A stretch of 64,000 nucleotides of DNA from Escherichia coli (GTDB taxonomy: Bacteria; Pseudomonadota; Gammaproteobacteria; Enterobacterales; Enterobacteriaceae). The stretch is taken from NCBI RefSeq assembly GCF_003790525.1, contig NZ_CP033635.1. One strand, given 5' to 3'. Under the pieces are notes generated by a model, which ran no database searches, had not been told where the DNA came from, and saw only the letters and a program-made list of their open reading frames with translations. Of the stretch, positions 49,421 to 64,000 are shown piece after piece (position 1 is the stretch's first letter; the number at the start of each line of letters is the position of its first letter). The position numbers were made by a program, and so were the translations under genes.

Positions 49421-49448
49421 ACCGCTCACCGCCATTCCTGACCGCTTA
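49421..49448. promoter_or_regulatory. BtsR (YehT, LytTR-family) direct-repeat binding motif in btsT promoter
   Basis: Direct repeat ACCGCTCA ... ACCGCTTA with 12-bp spacer upstream of btsT. Confidence 0.55.
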
Positions 49449-52975: not shown

Positions 52976-53305
52976 TACCCTTAACCTACTAATACGAAGC
53001 GGACGAGGATAAAACCCTATCATTTTCCGTTCGCTTCACTATTTTATTTCGTTCCAACACCCATTAAAATTAAAAATATAATTCTGCCATAATTTCCTGA
53101 ACACAGATGTAATTACATTGCCACCACTCATACTTTTAAAAATAATTTATATGATAGACGTCCTATTGAGGCGTAATAGATGTATTAATTTCCAAATACG
53201 CAAACATTCTGGTACAGTCCAAAAAAGAAAAATCATCAACCAAAACAATCAGCAAATAAATTAACAACGATTGAATCATAATCAACACGAATACAAGAGA
53301 TTAAC

Positions 53306-55156
53306 ATGGCAACAATAATCCCAACAATCAGTAGCTGCAACGATAAAATTACTGCCGGAGAGAAAAGGCTGGCAAGAATTCTGGAAAGAGGACTAGGCGA
53401 AGAGTGCTGCTGTTGGTATGACATTCCCACGGGTGATAAGCATCTTCACCCAGATTTTATGATACTTTCGCCAGAAAAAGGCATTATTTTTCTCGAGGTA
53501 AAAGATTGGTTTATTACAAAAATAAAAAAAGCCAACAAGTCTAATGTGTTGTATGAGACACAAAATGGTATTCAATCTTTAAAGAATCCGATAGAACAAG
53601 TTAGGCGATATGCTTTCGAAGCTGTAAACCAGTTAAAAAAAGACCCCCTATTGTGCCAACAGGATGATCGTTACAATGGCAATCTTCTTTTCCCCTATGG
53701 ATATGGCGTCTACTTTAGTAATATTACACGAGAAGCATTAAATAATAAATTTACTCAAGAAGAGCTGCTCGGGATCTTCCCATCAGATCTCATCATCTGC
53801 AAAGACGAAATAAATGAATTCATGTCAAAAGAGGATGTTTCATCCAAAATACATTCGTTGATTAAATATGACTTCAAATGTCATGCTACACAAGAACAGT
53901 TGAACAGGATTAGATGGCACTTATACCCCGATGTCAGAATAGAAAGGGAAAAGAGAAGTAAAAACCGTGATGAATTTAGTGTCGATGCACCAACCATCAT
54001 TTCTATCCTGGATACTCAACAGGAACAACTTGCCAGAAGTATGAGAGATGGCCACCGGATCATTCATGGTGTTGCAGGTTCAGGGAAGACATTGATCCTC
54101 TATCATCGCTGTCAGGAATTAGCGAAAAAAAATGACAGCGAAAAGCCAATTCTTGTCATTTGCTACAATATTACTTTAGCCAAAAAACTTCGGTCGATGT
54201 TCATCAATCATCCCTTTGCAGAGAAAATAAAGGTTAAAAATTTTCATGCTTGGTGTTTCCAACAAATTAAAGAAAACAAGATCACTATTCCAGAAGGGGA
54301 TAATATTTTTGAAAATATGGAGCTAGCGTTGACTGATGGTTTCAAGACAGGAAAAATAAAACCAGAACAATACAGCGCTGTATTAATTGATGAAGGACAT
54401 GATTTTAAGCCAGAATGGTTAAAAATCCTGGCAAAAATGACTGACTCTCAGGACGAGAATTTGCTATTCCTTTATGATGATGCTCAGTCAATTTACCAAA
54501 AAAAGAAAGCATTAGACTTTACACTGTCCAGCGTAGATATTAAAGCGACAGGACGCACAACCATTCTTAATATAAATTATAGAAACACACAGCAAATCCT
54601 ACACTTTGCCAGTTGCATTGCATTTAATTATCTTAATAGCCATATCGATAGTTCTTTAACCTATCATAAACCTGCTGCGGGAGGAATGAATGGCGATTAT
54701 CCCAACCTTGAACATTTCGACACACAGGACGAAGAAATAGCACGAGCAGTCGAATGGATTACAGAGCAAAATGAACAAGGGATTCCGTGGTCTGAAATTG
54801 CTATACTAAGTCCATCAACTCACACCCTTTCTAACTCTCTAAGCTCTGTACTTGAATCGAAAAACATCCCCTTTAATCTTATTGTAAGCTCTGCAGATAA
54901 AAAGTCCTGGACGCCAGAACAAGAGCGTATTTCTGTTATGCCATTACCCAGCAGTAAAGGACTTGAGTTTCACTCAGTTGTCATTATTGATGCAGCGAGA
55001 ACACGGGATAATAGCGATGATTTGAGTGAGGATATAAAGAGACTCTATGTAGGTTTTACCCGAGCACGTTGCAATCTCTTGGTAACCTTGCACGGTGAAG
55101 GTGCGTTAAATGAGCATCTACTAAAAACCTATGAGCAAAGCCCACAATATATGTAA
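53306..55156 (+). CDS. NERD (PD-(D/E)xK-like nuclease) domain fused to SF1 UvrD-like helicase/ATPase, 616 aa; candidate single-gene defence protein
   Basis: N-terminal HPDFMILSPEKGIIFLEVKDW (D..E.K nuclease-like core); Walker A GVAGSGKT (aa 255-262), Walker B LIDEGHDF, motif VI-like VGFTRAR; gene is low-GC and sits where K-12 has mrr-hsdRMS. Confidence 0.8.
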   Translation: MATIIPTISSCNDKITAGEKRLARILERGLGEECCCWYDIPTGDKHLHPDFMILSPEKGIIFLEVKDWFITKIKKANKSNVLYETQNGIQSLKNPIEQVRRYAFEAVNQLKKDPLLCQQDDRYNGNLLFPYGYGVYFSNITREALNNKFTQEELLGIFPSDLIICKDEINEFMSKEDVSSKIHSLIKYDFKCHATQEQLNRIRWHLYPDVRIEREKRSKNRDEFSVDAPTIISILDTQQEQLARSMRDGHRIIHGVAGSGKTLILYHRCQELAKKNDSEKPILVICYNITLAKKLRSMFINHPFAEKIKVKNFHAWCFQQIKENKITIPEGDNIFENMELALTDGFKTGKIKPEQYSAVLIDEGHDFKPEWLKILAKMTDSQDENLLFLYDDAQSIYQKKKALDFTLSSVDIKATGRTTILNINYRNTQQILHFASCIAFNYLNSHIDSSLTYHKPAAGGMNGDYPNLEHFDTQDEEIARAVEWITEQNEQGIPWSEIAILSPSTHTLSNSLSSVLESKNIPFNLIVSSADKKSWTPEQERISVMPLPSSKGLEFHSVVIIDAARTRDNSDDLSEDIKRLYVGFTRARCNLLVTLHGEGALNEHLLKTYEQSPQYM

Positions 55157-55174
55157 AAATGATAAATTATCTCC

Positions 55175-55206
55175 ATAACGCCCGGTAACGCTGTACCGGG
55201 CGTTAT
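55175..55206 (+). terminator. Stem-loop downstream of the NERD-helicase gene (possible terminator; no clear T-run)
   Basis: 13-bp perfect inverted repeat ATAACGCCCGGTA ... TACCGGGCGTTAT with 6-nt loop. Confidence 0.4.
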
Positions 55207-55288
55207 GAATGTATATCTAAGATATTAGTCACGCCTGATAGCCGCTACCAAAAACGCCATCATCTCCCTCTCATCTTTGCTGTGATAA

Positions 55289-55594
55289 AAGCGTACCATT
55301 TTGCTGTTAAATTCCAGCGCTTTAGCCACTGGAATTAACAAGTTCAAACTTCCGACAACGAAGTTCCAGTTATTACAAAAATTACTGGCAAAAGAGATGA
55401 AAAGCGTAGTTGACAACACATCGAAATATACTGACTGGAGTAAACGCGATGATATTAAAGCGAAACTGAAAGTTGAACTTATTCTGCTTCTACACAAGCA
55501 TAAGTTCCCGCCAGTAGCGAATGATGATGTTTATATGGGTGTGCTGGCACAGGCAGAGAATTTTAAAGAACATCATATGAGTGCTTTAAATTAA
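55289..55594 (+). pseudogene. Possible 3' remnant of a type I restriction enzyme R-subunit (HsdR C-terminal region)
   Basis: Frame opens only at 55289 after a stop, no upstream coding partner; product ...TDWSKRDDIKAKLKVELILLLHKHKFPPVANDDVYMGVLAQAENFKEH resembles the conserved HsdR C-terminal YPP-containing motif as recalled. Confidence 0.4.
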
Positions 55595-55713
55595 TTATGA
55601 AGGCCGGATACACTTTGTTATCCGGCCATTGTGAATTAACGTTAATTTCTCTTCCAGATATTTCCAGTAACGCTTTTATTATTTTCTATTTTTAGCTGGA
55701 CTTTCCCTGTATT

Positions 55714-55733
55714 TACTGATGATATGTCCAGGT
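55714..55733. promoter_or_regulatory. LexA (SOS) box upstream of symE
   Basis: TACTGATGATATGTCCAGGT contains CTG-N10-CAG with AT-rich spacer about 80 bp upstream of symE start. Confidence 0.5.
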
Positions 55734-55749
55734 ATTTAGCGCGGTGCGA

Positions 55750-55830
55750 ATGTGCGCCAACACACCCGCACCGCTCATCACAATCACTATTTATGGAGAA
55801 TAGTAATCATGACTGACACGCATTCTATTG
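55750..55830 (-). ncRNA. symR: Expected position of SymR antisense sRNA overlapping the symE 5' end (approximate)
   Basis: Placed by established knowledge that SymR is transcribed antisense across the symE RBS and start codon; ends not determined from sequence. Confidence 0.35.
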
Positions 55831-56150
55831 CACAACCGTTCGAAGCAGAAGTCTCCCCGGCAAATAACCGTCAATTAACCGTGAGTTATGCGAGTCGCTA
55901 CCCGGATTACAGCCGTATTCCCGCCATCACCCTGAAAGGTCAGTGGCTGGAAACCGCCGGTTTTGCTACCGGCACGGCGGTAGATGTCAAAGTGATGGAA
56001 GGCTGTATTGTCCTCACCGCCCAACCACCCACCGCCGAAGAGAGCGAACTGATGCAGTCACTGCGCCAGGTGTGCAAGCTGTCAGCGCGTAAACAAAAGC
56101 AGGTGCGGGAATTTATTGGGGTGATTGCCGGTAAACAGAAAGTCGCCTGA
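55809..56150 (+). CDS. symE: SOS-induced type I toxin SymE (YjiW), AbrB/MazE-fold endoribonuclease-like
   Basis: ORF track 55752..56150; conserved start [48 protein letters not shown]. Confidence 0.9.
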
Positions 56151-56196
56151 TACATTGACCCGGTAGCGCCAGTGCTACCGGGTATTATTCGCCGTG

Positions 56197-58290
56197 TTAG
56201 ACCAACGCGCTCTCCATCTGTTTTTCAAATGCCTGACGAATTAATCCCATAACGTAAGGAAGTTGTGCGAGGTCGCTGAAACCAATTTCCACATCACCAT
56301 TGCCCCAGCGCCCAACATTTGTCACATCTTTGGCAATACCTTTCGGATCGACCAGTTCATGAAACTGCATATTAAGCGACAATCGCAGTCGGCTTTTTTG
56401 CGGCACAACATCAACAAAATTCGTTTCCGCTTTAAACGCAATATAGAGCTTCAATACTTCCTGCGTGATCCCTGCGTCCAGGCGCATAACTTCATCGCGA
56501 AGATGATCAAATAACACCCGGCTATGCGAACCATCAGCAAGAAAAGGATAATCACTCAGGCTATAACTGGTTTTGTTTTCAGGCTGCGCCCGATAAACAG
56601 CTAAAACCTCTTCAGGAAGAGCAGGCGCTTGCCAGACCTGAACCGCGAGATCGGCCAGACGATCGGCACGGGCGCGAATGGCGGCTTCATCCCATTTTTC
56701 GCACTGTCCAAGACCGATATTCAAATAAAGCGGGCTATGCTTAAAGCCGTCTTCAATATCGCGTTTTTCCGCGAAAGGTCTGTCACTGTAGCGGGAGTTA
56801 TAGCGCGTTAATGTGAGATTCCCCAACGTATGTAACAGTTCTTTATGCACACGCTGCCAGTCGCTTCCCAGCTCTTCACGCCATTTAGCCGACAAATTTT
56901 CGTTCTGCGGCATAATATGCTCAATCGTAAACTCTTCCACGCGCTCTCTGCGTTTATCGTTTTCCAGTCGTCGTAACCAGTAGCTGCGACTGCGGAAGTT
57001 ATAGAGATCGCGAACTTTTAATTCCCGTTTAAATTCATCATCGTTGGGGAAACGACGATATGAAGGCAGATTCAGAAAATGTACCTGAATACTTTCCAGA
57101 TATTTTTCTTTAATAATGACCTTATAAAAGGTAGCAAACGTCTTGTTAAGAGAATTTGTCGGAATCGCACATACTGCACGGCGGAAAACATAAGATTCAA
57201 TTAAACGAATTATGCTCAGGAAATCTTCGTGAGGCAAATCGCCATTTTTATAGTCATGATAAAGCGCCAGTAAGAAAGGATACGCCACATCGACCTTTAA
57301 CTCGCGCAAATCCTGAAAAGCCGTAGCAAGCGATTTGTCACTTTCTTTACCCAATGCCATTGCACAGTAATACTCCGCGTAGATGTGAATATCTTCAACC
57401 AGGTGATCCACGCCTTTTTCAGCAACACTCTGGCTGCGGGCATGGAGTTTAAATGCCTCATAGACTTCATCTGTACGAGGGATCTCCCCCGTTTTTACCG
57501 TCAGATAATGACGCATAAAGCTGTCAAAATATTCGCTGTAACCTTGCTGACCAAAAGCGACTTCCATTGGACGCCAGTGATCTTCATACAACCGGGTTTG
57601 ATGCTCTGGTTCGAGACCCATCAGAATAAAATTGCGCACCAGATCGGCCTGACTTAACGCCTTACCGGTAGAGTTCATACTTTCAAAAATCAGTTGCGGA
57701 TTATCCTGACCACGATTAAGCGCCACATCGACAATTAATAATTTTGCTAACCCACGACATAAGGGGATCAAGTCATCACCGAGTTTGGCAATTTGCTCAT
57801 CAAAGAAAGTAAAGTTTTCCATTATTCGATGGGAATAGTTTTCTGGCATTGGTCTTTGTTTTATTAACGCCAGCAAACTGTCTTTATCAGTCTCGGTCAG
57901 CAGTAATTTAAATCCTTTCTCGCCGGACTCATAAGGATTGAGTAAATAATAATTACGCAATTTCATTGCTGAAAAGCCATCAAAAACTTCGTCTTCGCCA
58001 AGATGACGCGATAAAGCCTCAATCAGCAACATTGCGGTCGTCAGCCTTTGTTGACCATCAATGACCAGTAACGGAGAAATACCAGAAACCTGATACAACC
58101 CCTGCTCAATATAAACAACCGAACCGATAAAATGCGCTGATATATCGTCACGCTTTCCGGCACGAATGATGTCGTCCCAAAGTTGCCGACATTGTTGTTC
58201 TGTCCATGAATAAGTCCGTTGATAAATGGGAATCACAAACTGCTGCGAACGTTTTAAAAAATCGAGTAGGCGGGCTTCTGTAGCTTTCAT
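56197..58290 (-). CDS. DUF262 (ParB-like NTPase) + DUF1524 (His-Me finger nuclease) fusion, GmrSD-family putative type IV modification-dependent restriction endonuclease
   Basis: 697-aa ORF with N-terminal VIDGQQRLTT (DGQQR motif) and C-terminal EFTIEHIMPQN...H..LGNLTL nuclease motif; convergent with symE, in the slot where K-12 has mcrBC. Confidence 0.78.
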   Translation of the reverse strand: MKATEARLLDFLKRSQQFVIPIYQRTYSWTEQQCRQLWDDIIRAGKRDDISAHFIGSVVYIEQGLYQVSGISPLLVIDGQQRLTTAMLLIEALSRHLGEDEVFDGFSAMKLRNYYLLNPYESGEKGFKLLLTETDKDSLLALIKQRPMPENYSHRIMENFTFFDEQIAKLGDDLIPLCRGLAKLLIVDVALNRGQDNPQLIFESMNSTGKALSQADLVRNFILMGLEPEHQTRLYEDHWRPMEVAFGQQGYSEYFDSFMRHYLTVKTGEIPRTDEVYEAFKLHARSQSVAEKGVDHLVEDIHIYAEYYCAMALGKESDKSLATAFQDLRELKVDVAYPFLLALYHDYKNGDLPHEDFLSIIRLIESYVFRRAVCAIPTNSLNKTFATFYKVIIKEKYLESIQVHFLNLPSYRRFPNDDEFKRELKVRDLYNFRSRSYWLRRLENDKRRERVEEFTIEHIMPQNENLSAKWREELGSDWQRVHKELLHTLGNLTLTRYNSRYSDRPFAEKRDIEDGFKHSPLYLNIGLGQCEKWDEAAIRARADRLADLAVQVWQAPALPEEVLAVYRAQPENKTSYSLSDYPFLADGSHSRVLFDHLRDEVMRLDAGITQEVLKLYIAFKAETNFVDVVPQKSRLRLSLNMQFHELVDPKGIAKDVTNVGRWGNGDVEIGFSDLAQLPYVMGLIRQAFEKQMESALV

Positions 58291-58386
58291 TCTGACGTCT
58301 TTCCGTGAAGCGATGATTTCGCAATAATAACCACTTCCTTGTGGAGGTTATAGAGAAATCCTGTTTATCCGCGACGAACTGCCCCA

Positions 58387-58551
58387 TCACTCCACATCCT
58401 CCCTGCGTAACCCAATATCCCTCAACCGCTCATCACTCATCTGCTGTAACACCCGCCGGGCCTGCATTTGCCGCCGCCAACGCCTCACTGCCTGCCAGAG
58501 TTGCACAAGTCCAATAAACGGTGCTTTAGCTTTGTTTTCGTGAAATTCCAT
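58387..58551 (-). CDS. yjiS: Small DUF1127 protein YjiS (54 aa; below the ORF-track length cutoff)
   Basis: Manual minus-strand translation MEFHENKAKAPFIGLVQLWQAVRRWRRQMQARRVLQQMSDERLRDIGLRREDVE. Confidence 0.8.
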   Translation of the reverse strand: MEFHENKAKAPFIGLVQLWQAVRRWRRQMQARRVLQQMSDERLRDIGLRREDVE

Positions 58552-58727
58552 CTGCTGCCTCCTCATCTTTCAGAGGCTTCATCATCCGCCTTCTGGCAGT
58601 TCACAATACAGATGCAAATATTAGTTTTATTTAACATACAGACAGGTTAAAACAGCATCTGCATCCGGTTTTTTAGCCTCATCTGTACCGGTTTTTCTCT
58701 CTGTATGGTCCAAATAAGGAATACAGC

Positions 58728-60140
58728 ATGACGCGTTATCAACATCTGGCGACTTTGCTTGCCGAGCGGATTGAGCAAGGGCTGTATCGTCACGGGGAGA
58801 AATTGCCGTCGGTGCGCAGCTTAAGTCAGGAGCACGGCGTCAGCATCAGTACCGTGCAGCAGGCGTACCAGACGCTGGAAACGATGAAGCTCATCACTCC
58901 GCAGCCGCGTTCGGGTTATTTTGTCGCACAACGTAAAGCCCAGCCGCCAGTACCGCCGATGACGCGTCCGGTGCAGCGCCCGGTGGAAATTACCCAGTGG
59001 GATCAGGTGCTGGATATGCTGGAGGCGCATAGCGACAGTTCCATTGTTCCGTTAAGTAAAAGCACGCCGGATGTCGAAACGCCCAGCCTGAAACCGCTGT
59101 GGCGGGAGCTAAGCCGGGTGGTGCAGCATAATCTGCAAACCGTTCTCGGTTATGACTTGTTAGCCGGCCAGCGGGTATTGCGCGAGCAGATTGCCCGCCT
59201 GATGCTCGACAGCGGCTCGGTGGTCACCGCCGATGACATCATCATCACCAGCGGCTGCCATAACTCGATGTCGCTGGCGTTGATGGCAGTGTGTAAACCG
59301 GGCGATATTGTCGCGGTCGAATCCCCCTGTTATTACGGTTCGATGCAGATGCTGCGCGGCATGGGCGTGAAAGTGATTGAAATCCCCACCGATCCAGAAA
59401 CAGGCATCAGCGTTGAAGCGCTGGAACTGGCGCTGGAGCAGTGGCCGATTAAAGGCATCATTCTGGTGCCAAACTGTAATAATCCGCTGGGATTTATTAT
59501 GCCGGACGCGCGCAAACGGGCCGTTCTCTCTCTCGCTCAGCGTCATGATATTGTGATTTTTGAAGATGATGTCTACGGCGAACTGGCGACGGAGTATCCG
59601 CGCCCGCGGACCATTCATTCCTGGGATATCGACGGGCGAGTGCTGTTGTGCAGCTCGTTCAGTAAAAGTATTGCTCCAGGCCTGCGCGTGGGTTGGGTCG
59701 CACCGGGGCGCTATCACGATAAACTGCTGCATATGAAATATGCCATCAGCAGCTTTAATGTGCCGTCCACGCAAATGGCGGCGGCAACGTTTGTGCTGGA
59801 AGGTCACTATCATCGCCATATCCGGCGGATGCGGCAGATCTATCAGCGCAATTTGGCGCTTTATACCTGCTGGATACGGGAATATTTTCCCTGCGAAATC
59901 TGTATTACGCGCCCGAAAGGCGGATTTTTACTGTGGATCGAATTGCCTGAACAGGTCGATATGGTTTGCGTTGCGCGGCAGCTATACCGCATGAAAATCC
60001 AGGTGGCGGCAGGCTCGATTTTCTCAGCTTCCGGCAAATACCGTAATTGTCTGCGCATCAACTGCGCTTTGCCGCTCAGCGAAACCTATCGCGAAGCACT
60101 GAAGCAAATTGGCGAAGCCGTGTATCGGGCAATGGAATGA
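58728..60140 (+). CDS. yjiR: MocR/GabR-type regulator YjiR (GntR HTH fused to PLP aminotransferase-like domain)
   Basis: 470-aa ORF with N-terminal HTH (LPSVRSLSQEHGVSISTVQQAYQTLE) and aminotransferase-like C-terminal domain. Confidence 0.9.
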   Translation: MTRYQHLATLLAERIEQGLYRHGEKLPSVRSLSQEHGVSISTVQQAYQTLETMKLITPQPRSGYFVAQRKAQPPVPPMTRPVQRPVEITQWDQVLDMLEAHSDSSIVPLSKSTPDVETPSLKPLWRELSRVVQHNLQTVLGYDLLAGQRVLREQIARLMLDSGSVVTADDIIITSGCHNSMSLALMAVCKPGDIVAVESPCYYGSMQMLRGMGVKVIEIPTDPETGISVEALELALEQWPIKGIILVPNCNNPLGFIMPDARKRAVLSLAQRHDIVIFEDDVYGELATEYPRPRTIHSWDIDGRVLLCSSFSKSIAPGLRVGWVAPGRYHDKLLHMKYAISSFNVPSTQMAAATFVLEGHYHRHIRRMRQIYQRNLALYTCWIREYFPCEICITRPKGGFLLWIELPEQVDMVCVARQLYRMKIQVAAGSIFSASGKYRNCLRINCALPLSETYREALKQIGEAVYRAME

Positions 60141-60254
60141 ATTCGAAATAGTGGCGAGCCCCCTGATTTCCTCTCACGAATAGCGTGTGACTCGTTTTAT
60201 CTTTGCAGGGTCATCTCCACGTTCCAGCATGGCTTAGGCAAAATGCGCTTCGTT

Positions 60255-60360
60255 CATGCCGGATGCCATGTGAACACCTTACCAGGTCTACAAAATCTTT
60301 AAAATTCAATATATTTAATGGGTTATGTAGACCTGATAAGCGTAGCGCATCAGGCTGCTT
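60255..60360. repeat. REP-like elements between yjiR and rpnD
   Basis: GCCGGATGCC...CCTTACCAGGTCTACA and TGTAGACCTGATAAGCGTAGCGCATCAGGC palindromic units. Confidence 0.6.
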
Positions 60361-60382
60361 TGCGTTTGTCATCAGTCTCTGA

Positions 60383-61339
60383 TTAGTACTCGATCCATGG
60401 ATCGCGCTTGCTTTCAGGCAAGGGCTGCTCTAATGCCTGCATTTGCTCTGCCGAAAGTCCGGTATATCGTTGTATCCATTCAGGATCCGCCCCATTCTGC
60501 AACAACAATCGGAGGAGGCTCTTTTCCCCTTCTTCTTTCCCTTCTTTCCTCCCCCTCTCCCTTCCCAACAGCCATCCATCATTATGAATTCGCTCTGCAA
60601 TCGTCATTATTCGCTCCCTGTGTTGTGGCATTCGACGGATAAGTTCGCTGATAAACTCATTAAAACGCGCTTCATCGCCAGTCAGTAAAATGTAATTTAA
60701 CAGCGCGGTTATCTGGCTGTCATTAGCGCACCCTGTAACCAGTAATACTGCCAGTTGATCAATAAGCCCCATTAGATCGCGCTGGCGAATATGCTTTTGG
60801 ATCAACTCCAGCAGGGCGACTCTGCGATGCTGCACAATCTCGTCGTCTGGCACGACAGTGACATCCACCAGCGGGAACGCTGCGGTATAAAGCTTCCGCG
60901 CGGTAGCCGGGTCGGCAAATTCATCCAGCCAGCACAAAGACCAGGGGTAAGGACTACGGCTACTGTGATAAAACAGCATCGGGATGACCAGCGGTAGCGG
61001 CCGGCGTTTATCATGCTCGATATGGCGCTGCATCACCGCCATGGAATATCGCATCAGGCGAAAGGCCATATGGATATCCTCGCGGCTCTGATGTTCAATC
61101 ACCACATAAATATAGCCATCTCCTTCGCGGGTCTTTACCGACCACAGAATATCGGAATGTAGCGCCCGCAATTTTTCATCGACAAAGCTGGCGTATTCCA
61201 GTTTTAAGCTGTCGAGATCGCACAGTTCACGTAAATCTTTGGGTAAGTGGATCTCCATAAAATCCCGCGCGGTGTCAGGGTGGGTGAGAAAAGATTTAAA
61301 TAATGCGTCATGCGGCGTGCTGGTCGTGAAGTTTGTCAT
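60383..61339 (-). CDS. rpnD: Rpn-family recombination-promoting nuclease (YhgA-like, PD-(D/E)xK), intact 318-aa copy at the yjiP/yjiQ (rpnD) position
   Basis: [45 protein letters not shown]...[10 protein letters not shown] matches the Rpn/transposase_31 family N-terminus. Confidence 0.85.
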
Positions 61340-61805
61340 GGCGATCCGTCACCTGTAGATAAGATGGCCCGACTGTAGCGACTAACAAAACCATTCTCAC
61401 CCGGCAATTTCTCGTTCCCCGAGGTGCTTTCCAGGCTATTTTTGTTCCTCTGCAAACGATACATTTTTCCGGAAACAGGCTCGCGTTTTACATTTCCTGT
61501 ACCCGGCAGATATTCCCCTTTCCACCGCACTCTTTTGATTAACCGCAAATTTTAATTACACTTAAGGTGTATATTTTCTATGCAACCCATCAATTCAAGA
61601 GGTGTAATGTGCTGATGACTATTTGTAATCGTTATACATTCTGACCTGGAGTCAGAAGGTATTTCTCTGTCTGTGTGTTCACAGGCAGTGTGGTTGATTA
61701 CATGAAATTCAGTACATTTGCCCTTCTCGCCTGCCTTTCGTCATTACCGACGGTATTGAATTTCGTTTTCCCCATTGGGGTTCTCCGGACAAGGAGTTGT
61801 TTGTT

Positions 61806-63038
61806 ATGCCACGTTTTTTTGCCCGCCATGCCGCCACGCTGTTTTTCCCGATGGCGTTGATTTTGTATGACTTTGCTGCGTATCTGTCGACGGACCTGAT
61901 CCAGCCAGGGATCATTAATGTGGTCCGTGATTTTAATGCCGATGTCAGTCTGGCCCCGGCTGCCGTCAGTCTCTATCTCGCTGGAGGCATGGCATTGCAG
62001 TGGCTGCTGGGGCCGCTTTCCGACAGGATTGGCCGCAGGCCGGTGCTGATTAACGGGGCGTTAATTTTTACCCTTGCCTGCGCCGCGACAATGTTCACCA
62101 CGTCAATGACACAATTTCTTATCGCGCGTGCAATTCAGGGCACCAGTATCTGTTTTATTGCCACCGTTGGTTATGTCACGGTGCAGGAGGCGTTCGGACA
62201 GACAAAAGGGATCAAGTTGATGGCGATTATCACCTCCATCGTACTGATTGCGCCGATTATCGGCCCGCTTTCCGGCGCAGCTCTGATGCACTTTATGCAC
62301 TGGAAAGTCCTTTTTGCCATCATTGCGGTTATGGGTTTTATCTCATTTGTTGGCTTACTGTTGGCGATGCCAGAGACGGTGAAGCGCGGCGCGGTTCCGT
62401 TTAGCGCCAAAAGCGTCTTGCGCGATTTTCGTAATGTCTTTTGCAATCGGCTGTTCCTCTTTGGCGCAGCAACCATCTCTTTAAGCTATATCCCGATGAT
62501 GAGTTGGGTGGCTGTCTCGCCGGTGATCCTGATTGACGCAGGCGGCTTAACGACCTCGCAGTTCGCCTGGACACAGGTTCCGGTGTTCGGCGCGGTGATT
62601 GTTGCGAATGCCATCGTGGCGCGTTTCGTTAAAGATCCGACCGAACCGCGGTTTATCTGGCGTGCCGTGCCCATTCAACTGGCCGGCCTCGCACTGTTGA
62701 TTGTCGGCAATTTGCTGTCGCCACACGTCTGGCTGTGGTCGGTGCTGGGCACCAGTCTGTATGCTTTCGGGATTGGTTTGATTTTCCCGACCTTATTCCG
62801 CTTTACGCTGTTTTCCAATAACTTACCGAAAGGGACCGTCTCCGCATCGCTAAATATGGTGATCCTGATGGTGATGTCGGTCTCGGTCGAAATCGGCCGC
62901 TGGCTGTGGTTTAACGGCGGTCGCTTGCCGTTTCATCTGTTAGCCGTTTTAGCGGGCGTTATCGTCGTTTTCACCCTGGCGGGATTGCTCAATCGCGTGC
63001 GCCAGCATCAGGCTGCCGAGCTGGCGGAGGAGCGGTGA
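61806..63038 (+). CDS. mdtM: Multidrug efflux MFS transporter MdtM (YjiO)
   Basis: ORF track 61797..63038; conserved start [27 protein letters not shown]; MFS motif [13 protein letters not shown]. Confidence 0.9.
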
Positions 63039-63078
63039 TTTTTGCGCGATCCTGCCGTCAGGCTCTATTCTTAACGTT

Positions 63079-64000
63079 ATGAATAAACTCATTGAACTCA
63101 GACGCGCCAAAATGTTGGCGCTCTCTTTACTGCTTATCGCCGCTGCTACCTTTGTCGTTACGCTGTTTTTGCCGCCCAATTTTTGGGTGAGCGGCGTGAA
63201 GGCGATTGCTGAAGCGGCGATGGTCGGCGCGCTGGCGGACTGGTTTGCGGTGGTGGCGCTATTTCGCCGCGTGCCGATTCCGATCATTTCTCGTCATACG
63301 GCGATTATCCCGCGTAATAAAGACCGGATTGGCGAAAATCTCGGTCAGTTCGTGCAGGAAAAATTTCTCGATACCCAATCGCTGGTGGCATTGATTCGAC
63401 GTCACGAACCGGCGTTGTTGATTGGCAACTGGTTTAGTCAGCCAGAAAACGCCCGCCGCGTTGGTCAGCATCTGTTGCAGATCATGAGTGGTTTTCTTGA
63501 ACTGACCGATGATGCGCGTATTCAGCGCCTGCTTAAGCGCGCAGTCCATCGGGCGATTGATAAGGTCGATCTTTCCGGCACCAGTGCGTTGATGCTGGAG
63601 AGTATGACCAAAAACGATCGTCATCAGGTGCTGCTGGATACGCTGATCGCACAGTTGATCGCCCTTCTCCAGCGCGATAAATCGCGCAAGTTTATCGCCC
63701 AGCAGATTGTTCGCTGGCTGGAGAGTGAGCATCCACTGAAAGCCAAAATTTTGCCCACTGAATGGCTGGGCGAACATAGCGCGGAGTTGGTTTCTGACGC
63801 GGTGAATTCTTTGCTTGATGATATTAGTCGCGATCGTGCGCATCAGATCCGCCATGCGTTTGATCGCGCCACCTTCGCCCTGATCGACAAGCTGAAAAAC
63901 GATCCGGAAATGGCAGCGCGAGCCGATGCCGTAAAAAGCTATCTGAAAGAAGATGAAGCTTTTAATCGCTATCTCAGTGAATTGTGGGGGGATTTACGGG
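63079..64000 (+). CDS. yjiN: Inner-membrane protein YjiN (DUF445); 5' part only, continues beyond window end
   Basis: Open frame from ATG at 63079 to window end, [36 protein letters not shown]; absent from ORF track because no stop in window. Confidence 0.85.

Follow-up and report, generated by a model that had tools for sequence, protein, structure and literature searches.

An intact GmrSD-superfamily gene with an additional C-terminal domain in the immigration control region of Escherichia coli SMS-3-5

The gene and its domains

The stretch of DNA analysed here, referred to below as the window, comprises 64,000 nucleotides from Escherichia coli. On its minus strand, at positions 56197–58290, lies an uninterrupted open reading frame (ORF) of 697 amino acids with no internal stops, designated EcSMS35_4888 in the original annotation; the sequence of this interval is a 100% match to positions 5005139–5007232 of E. 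coli SMS-3-5 (NC_010498.1). The gene is intact and encodes a protein of the GmrSD superfamily. Its GC content is 44%, as compared to approximately 55% in the flanking core genes. The domains and motifs are listed below.

57625–58266, minus strand: GmrSD_N domain (formerly DUF262), a ParB/Srx-like nucleoside triphosphatase (NTPase), residues 9–222 (Pfam E = 9.4e-35; AlphaFold2 pLDDT, the predicted local distance difference test score, >90)
58045–58059, minus strand: DGQQR motif, residues 78–82
57049–57624, minus strand: all-helical linker or connector, residues 223–414 (AlphaFold2 secondary structure; colinear with the connector of Eco94GmrSD)
56650–57048, minus strand: GmrSD_C domain (formerly DUF1524), a His-Me finger nuclease domain, residues 415–547 (Pfam E = 1.1e-26)
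56905–56922, minus strand: EHIMPQ motif, residues 457–462
56797–56922, minus strand: predicted catalytic core, consisting of E457-H458 (in EHIMPQ), P461, N491 (in GNLTL) and N498 (alignment and conservation)
56221–56520, minus strand: DUF5655 domain, residues 591–690 (Pfam E = 2.6e-13)

An earlier reading of the sequence, the original prediction, had described the 697-residue ORF as a GmrSD-type fusion of DUF262 and DUF1524, with DGQQR near the N-terminus and EHIMPQ near the C-terminus. The motifs are present as it described, and the domain search that it asked for confirmed the fusion, both Pfam matches being far above chance. Its two-domain account was incomplete, as it missed the third, C-terminal domain, DUF5655.

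The AlphaFold2 model of the full protein has a pLDDT of 90.3 and a predicted template modelling score (pTM) of 0.80. Helices extend across residues 228–450 approximately, with a pLDDT of 90, and form the connector that is expected between the two domains in the GmrSD superfamily. No NCBIfam model was found for the 697-residue protein, and a search against PHROGs gave matches to families of unknown function only.

Conserved residues and selection

Conservation was assessed in an alignment of 70 homologs having 34–82% identity to the query. The residues D78-G79-Q80-Q81-R82, P461 and N491 are invariant in all 70 sequences, while E457, H458 and N498 are found in at least 90% of them. DGQQR is the motif for NTP hydrolysis in DndI, BrxU and HEC-06 (PMC11662687; bioRxiv 10.1101/2024.01.29.577857). 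E457-H458 is aligned with D507-H508 of Eco94GmrSD, a pair shown by mutagenesis to be essential, in that its mutation kills the enzyme (PMC4437046). The protein therefore has the features that characterise the GmrSD superfamily, namely a DUF262 domain containing DGQQR and a DUF1524 domain containing (D/E)HxxP and a conserved Asn. An N-terminal RLLDF sequence was also considered as an equivalent of the RLFDS motif of BrxU, and was dropped because its position differs and there is no alignment in its support.

The ratio of nonsynonymous to synonymous substitution rates (dN/dS) is 0.06–0.07 in comparisons with three other E. coli alleles: 0.065 with the allele of strain 222, 0.059 with a divergent allele, and 0.066 with the O157:H7 allele after repair of its frameshift. 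dN is much smaller than dS in all four regions of the gene, including the C-terminal domain. The intact ORF is under strong purifying selection.

Sequence and structural relatives

The family is very large, comprising 19,597 cluster representatives (50% identity) at E ≤ 1e-3, of which 2,782 remain at E ≤ 1e-30. Full-length homologs of 70–77% identity are found in Kiritimatiella, Halomonas, Oceanimonas, Salinivibrio and others, and the occurrence of such similar proteins across distant taxa implies both strong constraint and horizontal spread.

Among the PADLOC models, the highest ranking is Orf5 (PDLC02693, 1.7e-222), followed by HEC-06 (PDLC04155/04157, approximately 3e-67, residues 8–555) and mREase_IV (8e-28). 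dndI was formerly called Orf5 (PMC4198939), and DndI (9JFL) is also the best match in a sequence search of the PDB, with an E value of 2.5e-13 for the single sequence and 1.1e-39 for the profile over residues 6–555. Foldseek searches with the AlphaFold2 model again gave DndI (6e-17), followed by SspE (3e-14) and BrxU (2.5e-4). The original prediction regarded the architecture as common to BrxU and SspE, and this is correct at the level of the fold. It does not extend to the sequence: neither phmmer nor hmmsearch detected BrxU at E ≤ 1, and there are no BREX genes nearby, while the match to SspE is limited to residues 3–103 approximately, and ssp genes are absent from the contexts examined, so that the protein does not belong with SspE.

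Alignment with Eco94GmrSD, using the sequence given in the supplement of He et al., is colinear over the two proteins, with an identity of 24% and an E value of 5e-29. The closeness to GmrSD enzymes specific for glucosylated hydroxymethylcytosine that the original prediction implied is not supported at this level of identity. GmrSD enzymes in the strict sense form a clade (those of CT596, Eco94 and the UTI89 prophage) with mutual identities of 93–99%, and the protein falls outside it; nor are there phage genes at its locus. Judged by sequence, it would belong to a clade related to HEC-06 without being a strict member of it, since the Orf5 model scores higher.

The C-terminal DUF5655 domain

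Fold comparison indicates that DUF5655 has an α+β fold resembling YdhG, YjbR and frataxin. When residues 556–697 approximately were modelled in isolation, the pLDDT was 94.5. A sequence search of the PDB with a profile of this domain found nothing, leaving the fold comparison as the only informative one. In PADLOC, its match is to the C-terminal end of PDC-S18, which is a candidate for a single-gene defence protein (4.5e-24). Conserved residues of DUF5655 include Y616, D648, D655 and Q686.

Close relatives having 57–61% identity either lack DUF5655 or carry other C-terminal extensions, and we therefore regard the domain as a modular add-on. A homolog search with the C-terminal domain only returned fragments of the three-domain family and no new architectures. 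The three-domain architecture itself is found in AFDB50 in Helicobacter, Proteus, Moraxella, Eubacterium, Bacteroides and Methanobrevibacter. In the characterised enzymes that we checked (Eco94GmrSD, DndI and the HEC-06 models of PADLOC), DUF5655 is absent at the sequence level. Machnicka et al. (2015) catalogued the C-terminal add-ons DUF4268, DUF4357 and DNA_binding_1, and DUF5655 is not among them; a literature search for “DUF5655” gave essentially no papers.

DUF5655 is kept under purifying selection within a clade that is approximately 70% identical from E. coli to Kiritimatiellota. We speculate that it probably tunes substrate recognition or regulation. It is doubtful that it serves as a dedicated reader of a DNA modification, of a phage protein or of the state of a type I complex; if it did, the target range or activation logic of this clade would be unlike that of the known GmrSD enzymes. 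DUF5655 is a candidate specificity or regulatory module, and is the sole part of the locus that lacks an earlier description.

The immigration control region

The gene is located within the immigration control region (ICR), in which the order of genes in K-12 MG1655 is yjiS-yjiT-yjiV'-mcrC-mcrB-symE-symR-hsdS-hsdM-hsdR-mrr-yjiA. A BLAST comparison of the window with the K-12 region gave three blocks of similarity, extending up to 52975 (the end of yjiA), from 55678 to 56146 (symR/symE, 93%), and from 58382 to 64000 (yjiS onward, 95%). The features around the gene are as follows.

52976–55677: second cassette, GC content 37.5%, which takes the place of K-12 mrr-hsdRMS
55385–55594, plus strand: 3' remnant of a type I hsdR, approximately 70 codons (PADLOC REase_I, 1.5e-25; RefSeq pseudogene)
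55738–55814, minus strand: SymR antisense RNA (Rfam RF01809, 92.8 bits)
55809–56150, plus strand: symE, the convergent neighbour (NCBIfam, 2.2e-68; RefSeq)
56147–58381: cassette without a K-12 counterpart, 2.2 kb, GC content 44.6%, which takes the place of the 7.6 kb yjiT-yjiV'-mcrC-mcrB
56158–56183: GC-rich inverted repeat of 10 bp, flanked by the stop codons of the two convergent genes (symE and the GmrSD gene), inside the non-K-12 cassette
58387–58551, minus strand: yjiS (DUF1127), upstream and co-directional, 96 bp from the ATG of the gene

The comparison bears out the arrangement originally described, in which the gene is convergent with symE and stands in place of mcrBC, yjiT and yjiV, with yjiS retained. 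The spacer between symE and the gene is 46 bp long. The inverted repeat within it, found by eye and by folding, forms a hairpin with a ΔG of −21 kcal/mol (z = −3.3) and is probably a terminator common to the two genes. A scan for promoter and terminator consensus sequences did no better than shuffled sequences, and we thus make no claim about transcription.

Besides the GmrSD gene, the interval from yjiA to yjiS contains only a NERD/UvrD helicase gene, the hsdR 3' remnant and symR/symE; there is no methyltransferase gene between yjiA and yjiS. The hsdR 3' end is part of an intact hsdR in approximately 1000 other genomes, from which we infer that SMS-3-5 has lost a type I restriction-modification (R-M) system at this position. 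The description of the gene as solitary is therefore true of the locus in SMS-3-5 and not of its original state. Relatives are usually found in type I R-M operons, and the retained hsdR remnant, together with the type I neighbours of the gene in other E. coli, indicates that its solitary state is secondary. SMS-3-5 also shows that a strain can tolerate the gene in the absence of a type I partner.

The helicase gene in the second cassette (53306–55156, plus strand) encodes a 616-residue protein with NERD and UvrD/SF1-helicase regions (Pfam NERD, AAA_19 and UvrD_C; PADLOC C3a187 “NERD+UvrD”, 1.3e-140), which RefSeq names “3'-5' exonuclease”. It is probably another single-gene defence candidate. 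The full cassette is present in 100 of 5426 E. coli genomes.

Two further observations concern the surroundings of the ICR. An Rpn-family gene on the minus strand at 60383–61339 (rpnD, yjiP/yjiQ in K-12) is an intact ORF of 318 residues in SMS-3-5; its annotation is that of a pseudogene in K-12 and of a frameshifted gene in O157:H7 strain 1130. On the other side, homology to the K-12 region ends upstream of btsT at 49422, leaving 1–49421 of the window outside it. SMS-3-5 has genes for an amino-acid deaminase and an N-acyl-D-amino-acid deacylase where K-12 has tsr, forming a variable junction beside the ICR.

Distribution, alleles and annotation in E. coli

Among 5426 complete E. coli genomes, 1358 (approximately 25%) carry the gene at a coverage of at least 80%, nearly always with 95–99% identity; the copies in CFT073 and LF82, for example, have nucleotide identities of 97.7% and 97.3% to the SMS-3-5 gene. 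mcrBC of the K-12 type is present in 582 of the 5426 genomes (11%). Citrobacter amalonaticus carries an 82%-identical copy at the same locus, in the order cstA-yjiX-yjiA-brnTA-hsdMSR, gene, yjiS-yjiR, and a BLAST search of K-12 for a remnant of the GmrSD gene, which would have given the replacement a direction, found none. The suggestion that the strain had swapped McrBC for another system finds no support in the genome counts or in the Citrobacter copy. The K-12 configuration is the rarer one, and mcrBC and gmrSD are alternative fillings of a hotspot. In a recent review, the ICR is hotspot 36, with 9,040 loci, of which 12% contain GmrSD, 6% McrBC and 22% Mrr (EcoSal Plus 2025; PMC12707154).

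The lengths of the E. coli copies were surveyed in an even-step sample of 60 hits, 52 of which are near full length. The full 2094 bp is present in 33 of these 52, 17–18 are short by 1–2 bp, and one carries IS421. Every O157:H7 copy sampled belongs to the class that is 1–2 bp short, and the position of the loss is the following.

57486–57490, minus strand: run of five G (nucleotides 801–805 of the gene), which is four G in O157:H7, giving a frameshift

In O157:H7 strain 1130 the loss splits the gene at codon 267, resulting in a 293-residue DUF262 protein and a 387-residue C-terminal protein. A second group, of approximately 97.0% identity, also has a 1-bp deletion in this run of G. When the O157:H7 copy is repaired in silico it contains no further stops, and in view of this and of its low dN/dS, either the break is recent or the two halves are still constrained. 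Other strains retain only a 5' stump beside yjiS, as in EC22, where the gene is truncated by IS1. A second allele, of 699 residues with 76% protein identity, occupies a different position in the ICR, where it is flanked by a Fic/BrnA pair and a type I system.

RefSeq annotates the intact SMS-3-5 gene as a coding sequence (CDS) of 387 residues together with an N-terminal “pseudogene, missing C-terminus”; the product names that it uses are already “GmrSD restriction endonuclease domain-containing protein”. In strain 222 an intact ORF of 733 codons is split likewise, whereas the divergent allele is correctly represented by a single CDS of 699 residues. Judging by the names of the features, most other carriers are also split in RefSeq by the Prokaryotic Genome Annotation Pipeline (PGAP). 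A real frameshift or mosaic in SMS-3-5 was considered and ruled out, since the ORF is continuous and colinear with homologs of approximately 700 residues belonging to many phyla and, in a single stretch, with the 543-position PADLOC model. The C-terminal CDS assigned to SMS-3-5 and strain 222 has the same 1164-nucleotide span as that of O157:H7, and the split has thus probably been propagated from the O157:H7 models WP_001304006.1 and WP_001304007.1. Because intact copies are systematically mis-annotated, automated censuses of defence systems would undercount the gene.

Strain 222, which was isolated from human urine, lacks yjiS, yjiR and mdtM beside the gene, and the ORF remains open for 36 further codons upstream, giving the 733 codons. 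This longer ORF probably explains the “733-aa APECO1_2080” of He et al. The conserved start most probably corresponds to the Met of the SMS-3-5 ORF, as M1 and A3 hardly vary among homologs.

Genomic neighbourhoods of homologs

The neighbourhoods of ten homologs were read, of which eight, all outside E. coli, were informative; three metagenomic contigs were too short to provide context. Type I R-M genes are in the same cluster in six of the eight, with the gene between hsdS and hsdR in four cases, after hsdR in one, and convergent with hsdR in one. No gene of the dnd, ssp or BREX systems occurs in any of the eight.

In Kiritimatiella glycovorans and Salinivibrio the order is hsdM-hsdS-[gene]-hsdR, the homolog being approximately 71% identical and overlapping its neighbours by 4 nucleotides on both sides, which suggests translational coupling within a type I operon. 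In Halopseudomonas and Polycyclovorans the gene again lies between hsdS and hsdR, alongside other embedded defence genes (Abi_C, Fic and Abi_2). Oceanimonas has the arrangement BrxR-hsdM-hsdS-Bro-hsdR-[gene], in which the start of the gene overlaps the end of hsdR, and the copy in Citrobacter, which lies in the ICR, converges with hsdR. The gene is solitary in Nitrincola and on one metagenomic contig, amid housekeeping genes. E. coli O157:H7 and strain 222 have a type I system on the far side of symE. Payne et al. had already reported the frequent embedding of GmrSD-like genes in type I R-M and Hma systems.

Proposed function

We consider it likely that the protein is a type IV nuclease, autonomous and dependent on NTP, whose role is to cut hypermodified phage DNA and thereby to complement type I restriction. 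Its dependence on modification is suggested by analogy with Eco94GmrSD, BrxU and HEC-06. HEC-06 is a validated single-gene defence in which both DGQQR and EH are essential (Payne et al., bioRxiv 10.1101/2024.01.29.577857); it blocks T4, and a 22%-identical homolog, HEC-06_Bact, protects against T-even phages and not against the unmodified T4-GT7. In the proposed mechanism, binding and hydrolysis of a nucleotide by the N-terminal domain would license the C-terminal nuclease, which would then cut incoming phage DNA containing hypermodified bases, most likely the modified cytosines of T-even-type phages, while the unmodified DNA of the host would be spared. The enzyme would in this way cover phages that escape type I restriction by modification of their DNA; in SMS-3-5, where the type I partner has been deleted, it would now stand alone. 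It is plausible, as originally proposed, that the strain has a different spectrum of modified-phage targets.

Several observations weigh against a modification-dependent nuclease. The nearest solved protein, by both sequence and fold, is DndI, which is a nickase that senses phosphorothioate (PT) and not a modified-base enzyme, and the best PADLOC model, Orf5, belongs to the DndI family. With an identity of only 24%, the target modification of Eco94GmrSD is not transferable to this protein. The GmrSD encoded by the UTI89 prophage was inactive in vitro when purified, despite its 93% identity to Eco94GmrSD (PMC4437046), showing how difficult it is to predict activity in this family. The ICR ortholog UTI89_C5048 is described in the supplement of He et al. 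as not characterized (PMC4437046), and a literature search by locus tag found no paper after He et al. Finally, the C-terminal domain has a net charge of about −4, unlike a typical DNA binder, and a plain DNA-binding role for DUF5655 is not obvious.

The alternative that survives best, which we nevertheless regard as unlikely, is that the protein is an accessory or guard of type I R-M, either a second nuclease or a protein restrained by Hsd or by type I methylation and released, in the manner of PrrC, when a phage inhibits the system. The positions between or overlapping hsd genes described above (Kiritimatiella, Salinivibrio, Halopseudomonas, Polycyclovorans and Oceanimonas) are what would be expected of such a protein, and the E. 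coli copies are always in an hsd-bearing ICR. In SMS-3-5, however, the type I genes are gone and the ORF is still intact, with a dN/dS of approximately 0.065, and solitary copies exist in Nitrincola and on the metagenomic contig. Moreover, the E. coli gene is convergent with the hsd/symE side and does not form one operon with it, the cloned genes for HEC-06 and BrxU, which are related, act on their own, and unrelated autonomous defence genes are commonly embedded in type I operons.

Less probable again is a PT-sensing effector comparable to DndI or SspE, which would nick DNA lacking the PT mark of the host, with PT switching the NTPase and nuclease activities. This would fit the DndI and Orf5 matches, which are the strongest among solved structures and PADLOC models, and the presence of the Tyr of the YQR motif, Y23, which aligns with Y25 in the PT-sensing pocket of DndI. 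The same tyrosine is found in Eco94GmrSD, and it is therefore not diagnostic for PT sensing. The dnd and ssp genes that such an effector should accompany are missing from the ICR as well as from the informative homolog neighbourhoods, and neither PT nor BREX systems occur at any of the 9,040 ICR loci (PMC12707154). CFT073, which is described as dnd-negative, nevertheless has a copy, and the occurrence of the gene in approximately 25% of E. coli genomes contrasts with the rarity of dnd. In the absence of PT, DndI is genotoxic (PMC11662687), yet the SMS-3-5 gene is intact and under purifying selection.

That the gene is a decaying, non-functional relic of a defence island is very improbable: approximately one third of the sampled copies are 1–2 bp short, including all those from O157:H7, copies disrupted by IS421 and IS1 and 5' stumps exist, and RefSeq calls the SMS-3-5 copy a pseudogene plus a 387-residue CDS, but in SMS-3-5 the ORF has no interruption and reaches the full length of homologs from other phyla, it has all the catalytic residues and a dN/dS of 0.065, and the RefSeq split has no basis in the sequence.

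Relation to earlier work

The gene, its architecture, its position in the ICR and the presence of gmrSD instead of mcrBC are already known. He et al. (2015) list EcSMS35_4888 among the GmrSD homologs of the ICR and state that gmrSD replaces mcrBC (PMC4437046, Fig. 8); their treatment of the ICR gene is purely bioinformatic. In the EcoSal Plus 2025 review, gmrSD homologs are a standard occupant of the ICR (PMC12707154). The new points are minor, and consist of the DUF5655 domain with its YdhG/YjbR-like fold, the fixed frameshift in O157:H7, and the mis-splitting of intact copies by PGAP. Approximately one in four sequenced E. coli carry a member of the clade, among them uropathogenic and avian pathogenic strains, O104:H4 and, in frameshifted form, O157:H7, and its substrate range matters for host range in phage therapy and for the cloning of modified DNA.

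Comparison with known systems

The protein resembles Eco94GmrSD and the EcoCT596 GmrSD, the type IV prototype acting on glucosylated 5-hydroxymethylcytosine and 5-hydroxymethylcytosine, in being a single chain of DUF262, connector and DUF1524 with DGQQR and (D/E)H-x2-P motifs. It differs from Eco94GmrSD in length and location: Eco94GmrSD has 629 residues, ends at residue 553 of our query and thus lacks DUF5655, and is borne by a prophage, whereas the SMS-3-5 gene is in the ICR. The two halves of the O157:H7 gene, DUF262 only and DUF1524 with DUF5655, recall the two-chain GmrS/GmrD artefact, which still cut DNA (PMC4437046).

HEC-06 is similar in being a GmrSD-like single-gene system with DGQQR and EH motifs, and its model matches over its full length. 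The HEC-06 models are however approximately 560 residues long and lack DUF5655, and HEC-06 was found embedded in Hma systems. DndI (Orf5; Salmonella Cerro 87, PDB 9JFL) is the nearest solved structure, and shares the DGQQR NTPase domain and the HNH nickase domain. It differs in being part of a PT-sensing dndBCDE-dndI-dndFGH system, in lacking DUF5655, and in having only 18% identity to the SMS-3-5 protein in a structural alignment; linkage to dndBCDE or dndFGH is found neither in the ICR nor in the eight informative homolog contexts. BrxU (PDB 7P9K) has the same overall domain plan and follows the same logic, with a type IV enzyme lodged inside a different restriction system so as to intercept modified phages. 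McrBC, which occupies the slot between symE and yjiS in K-12, is likewise a modification-dependent and NTP-driven restriction system, but is unrelated, having two subunits that consist of an AAA+ GTPase and a PD-(D/E)xK nuclease.

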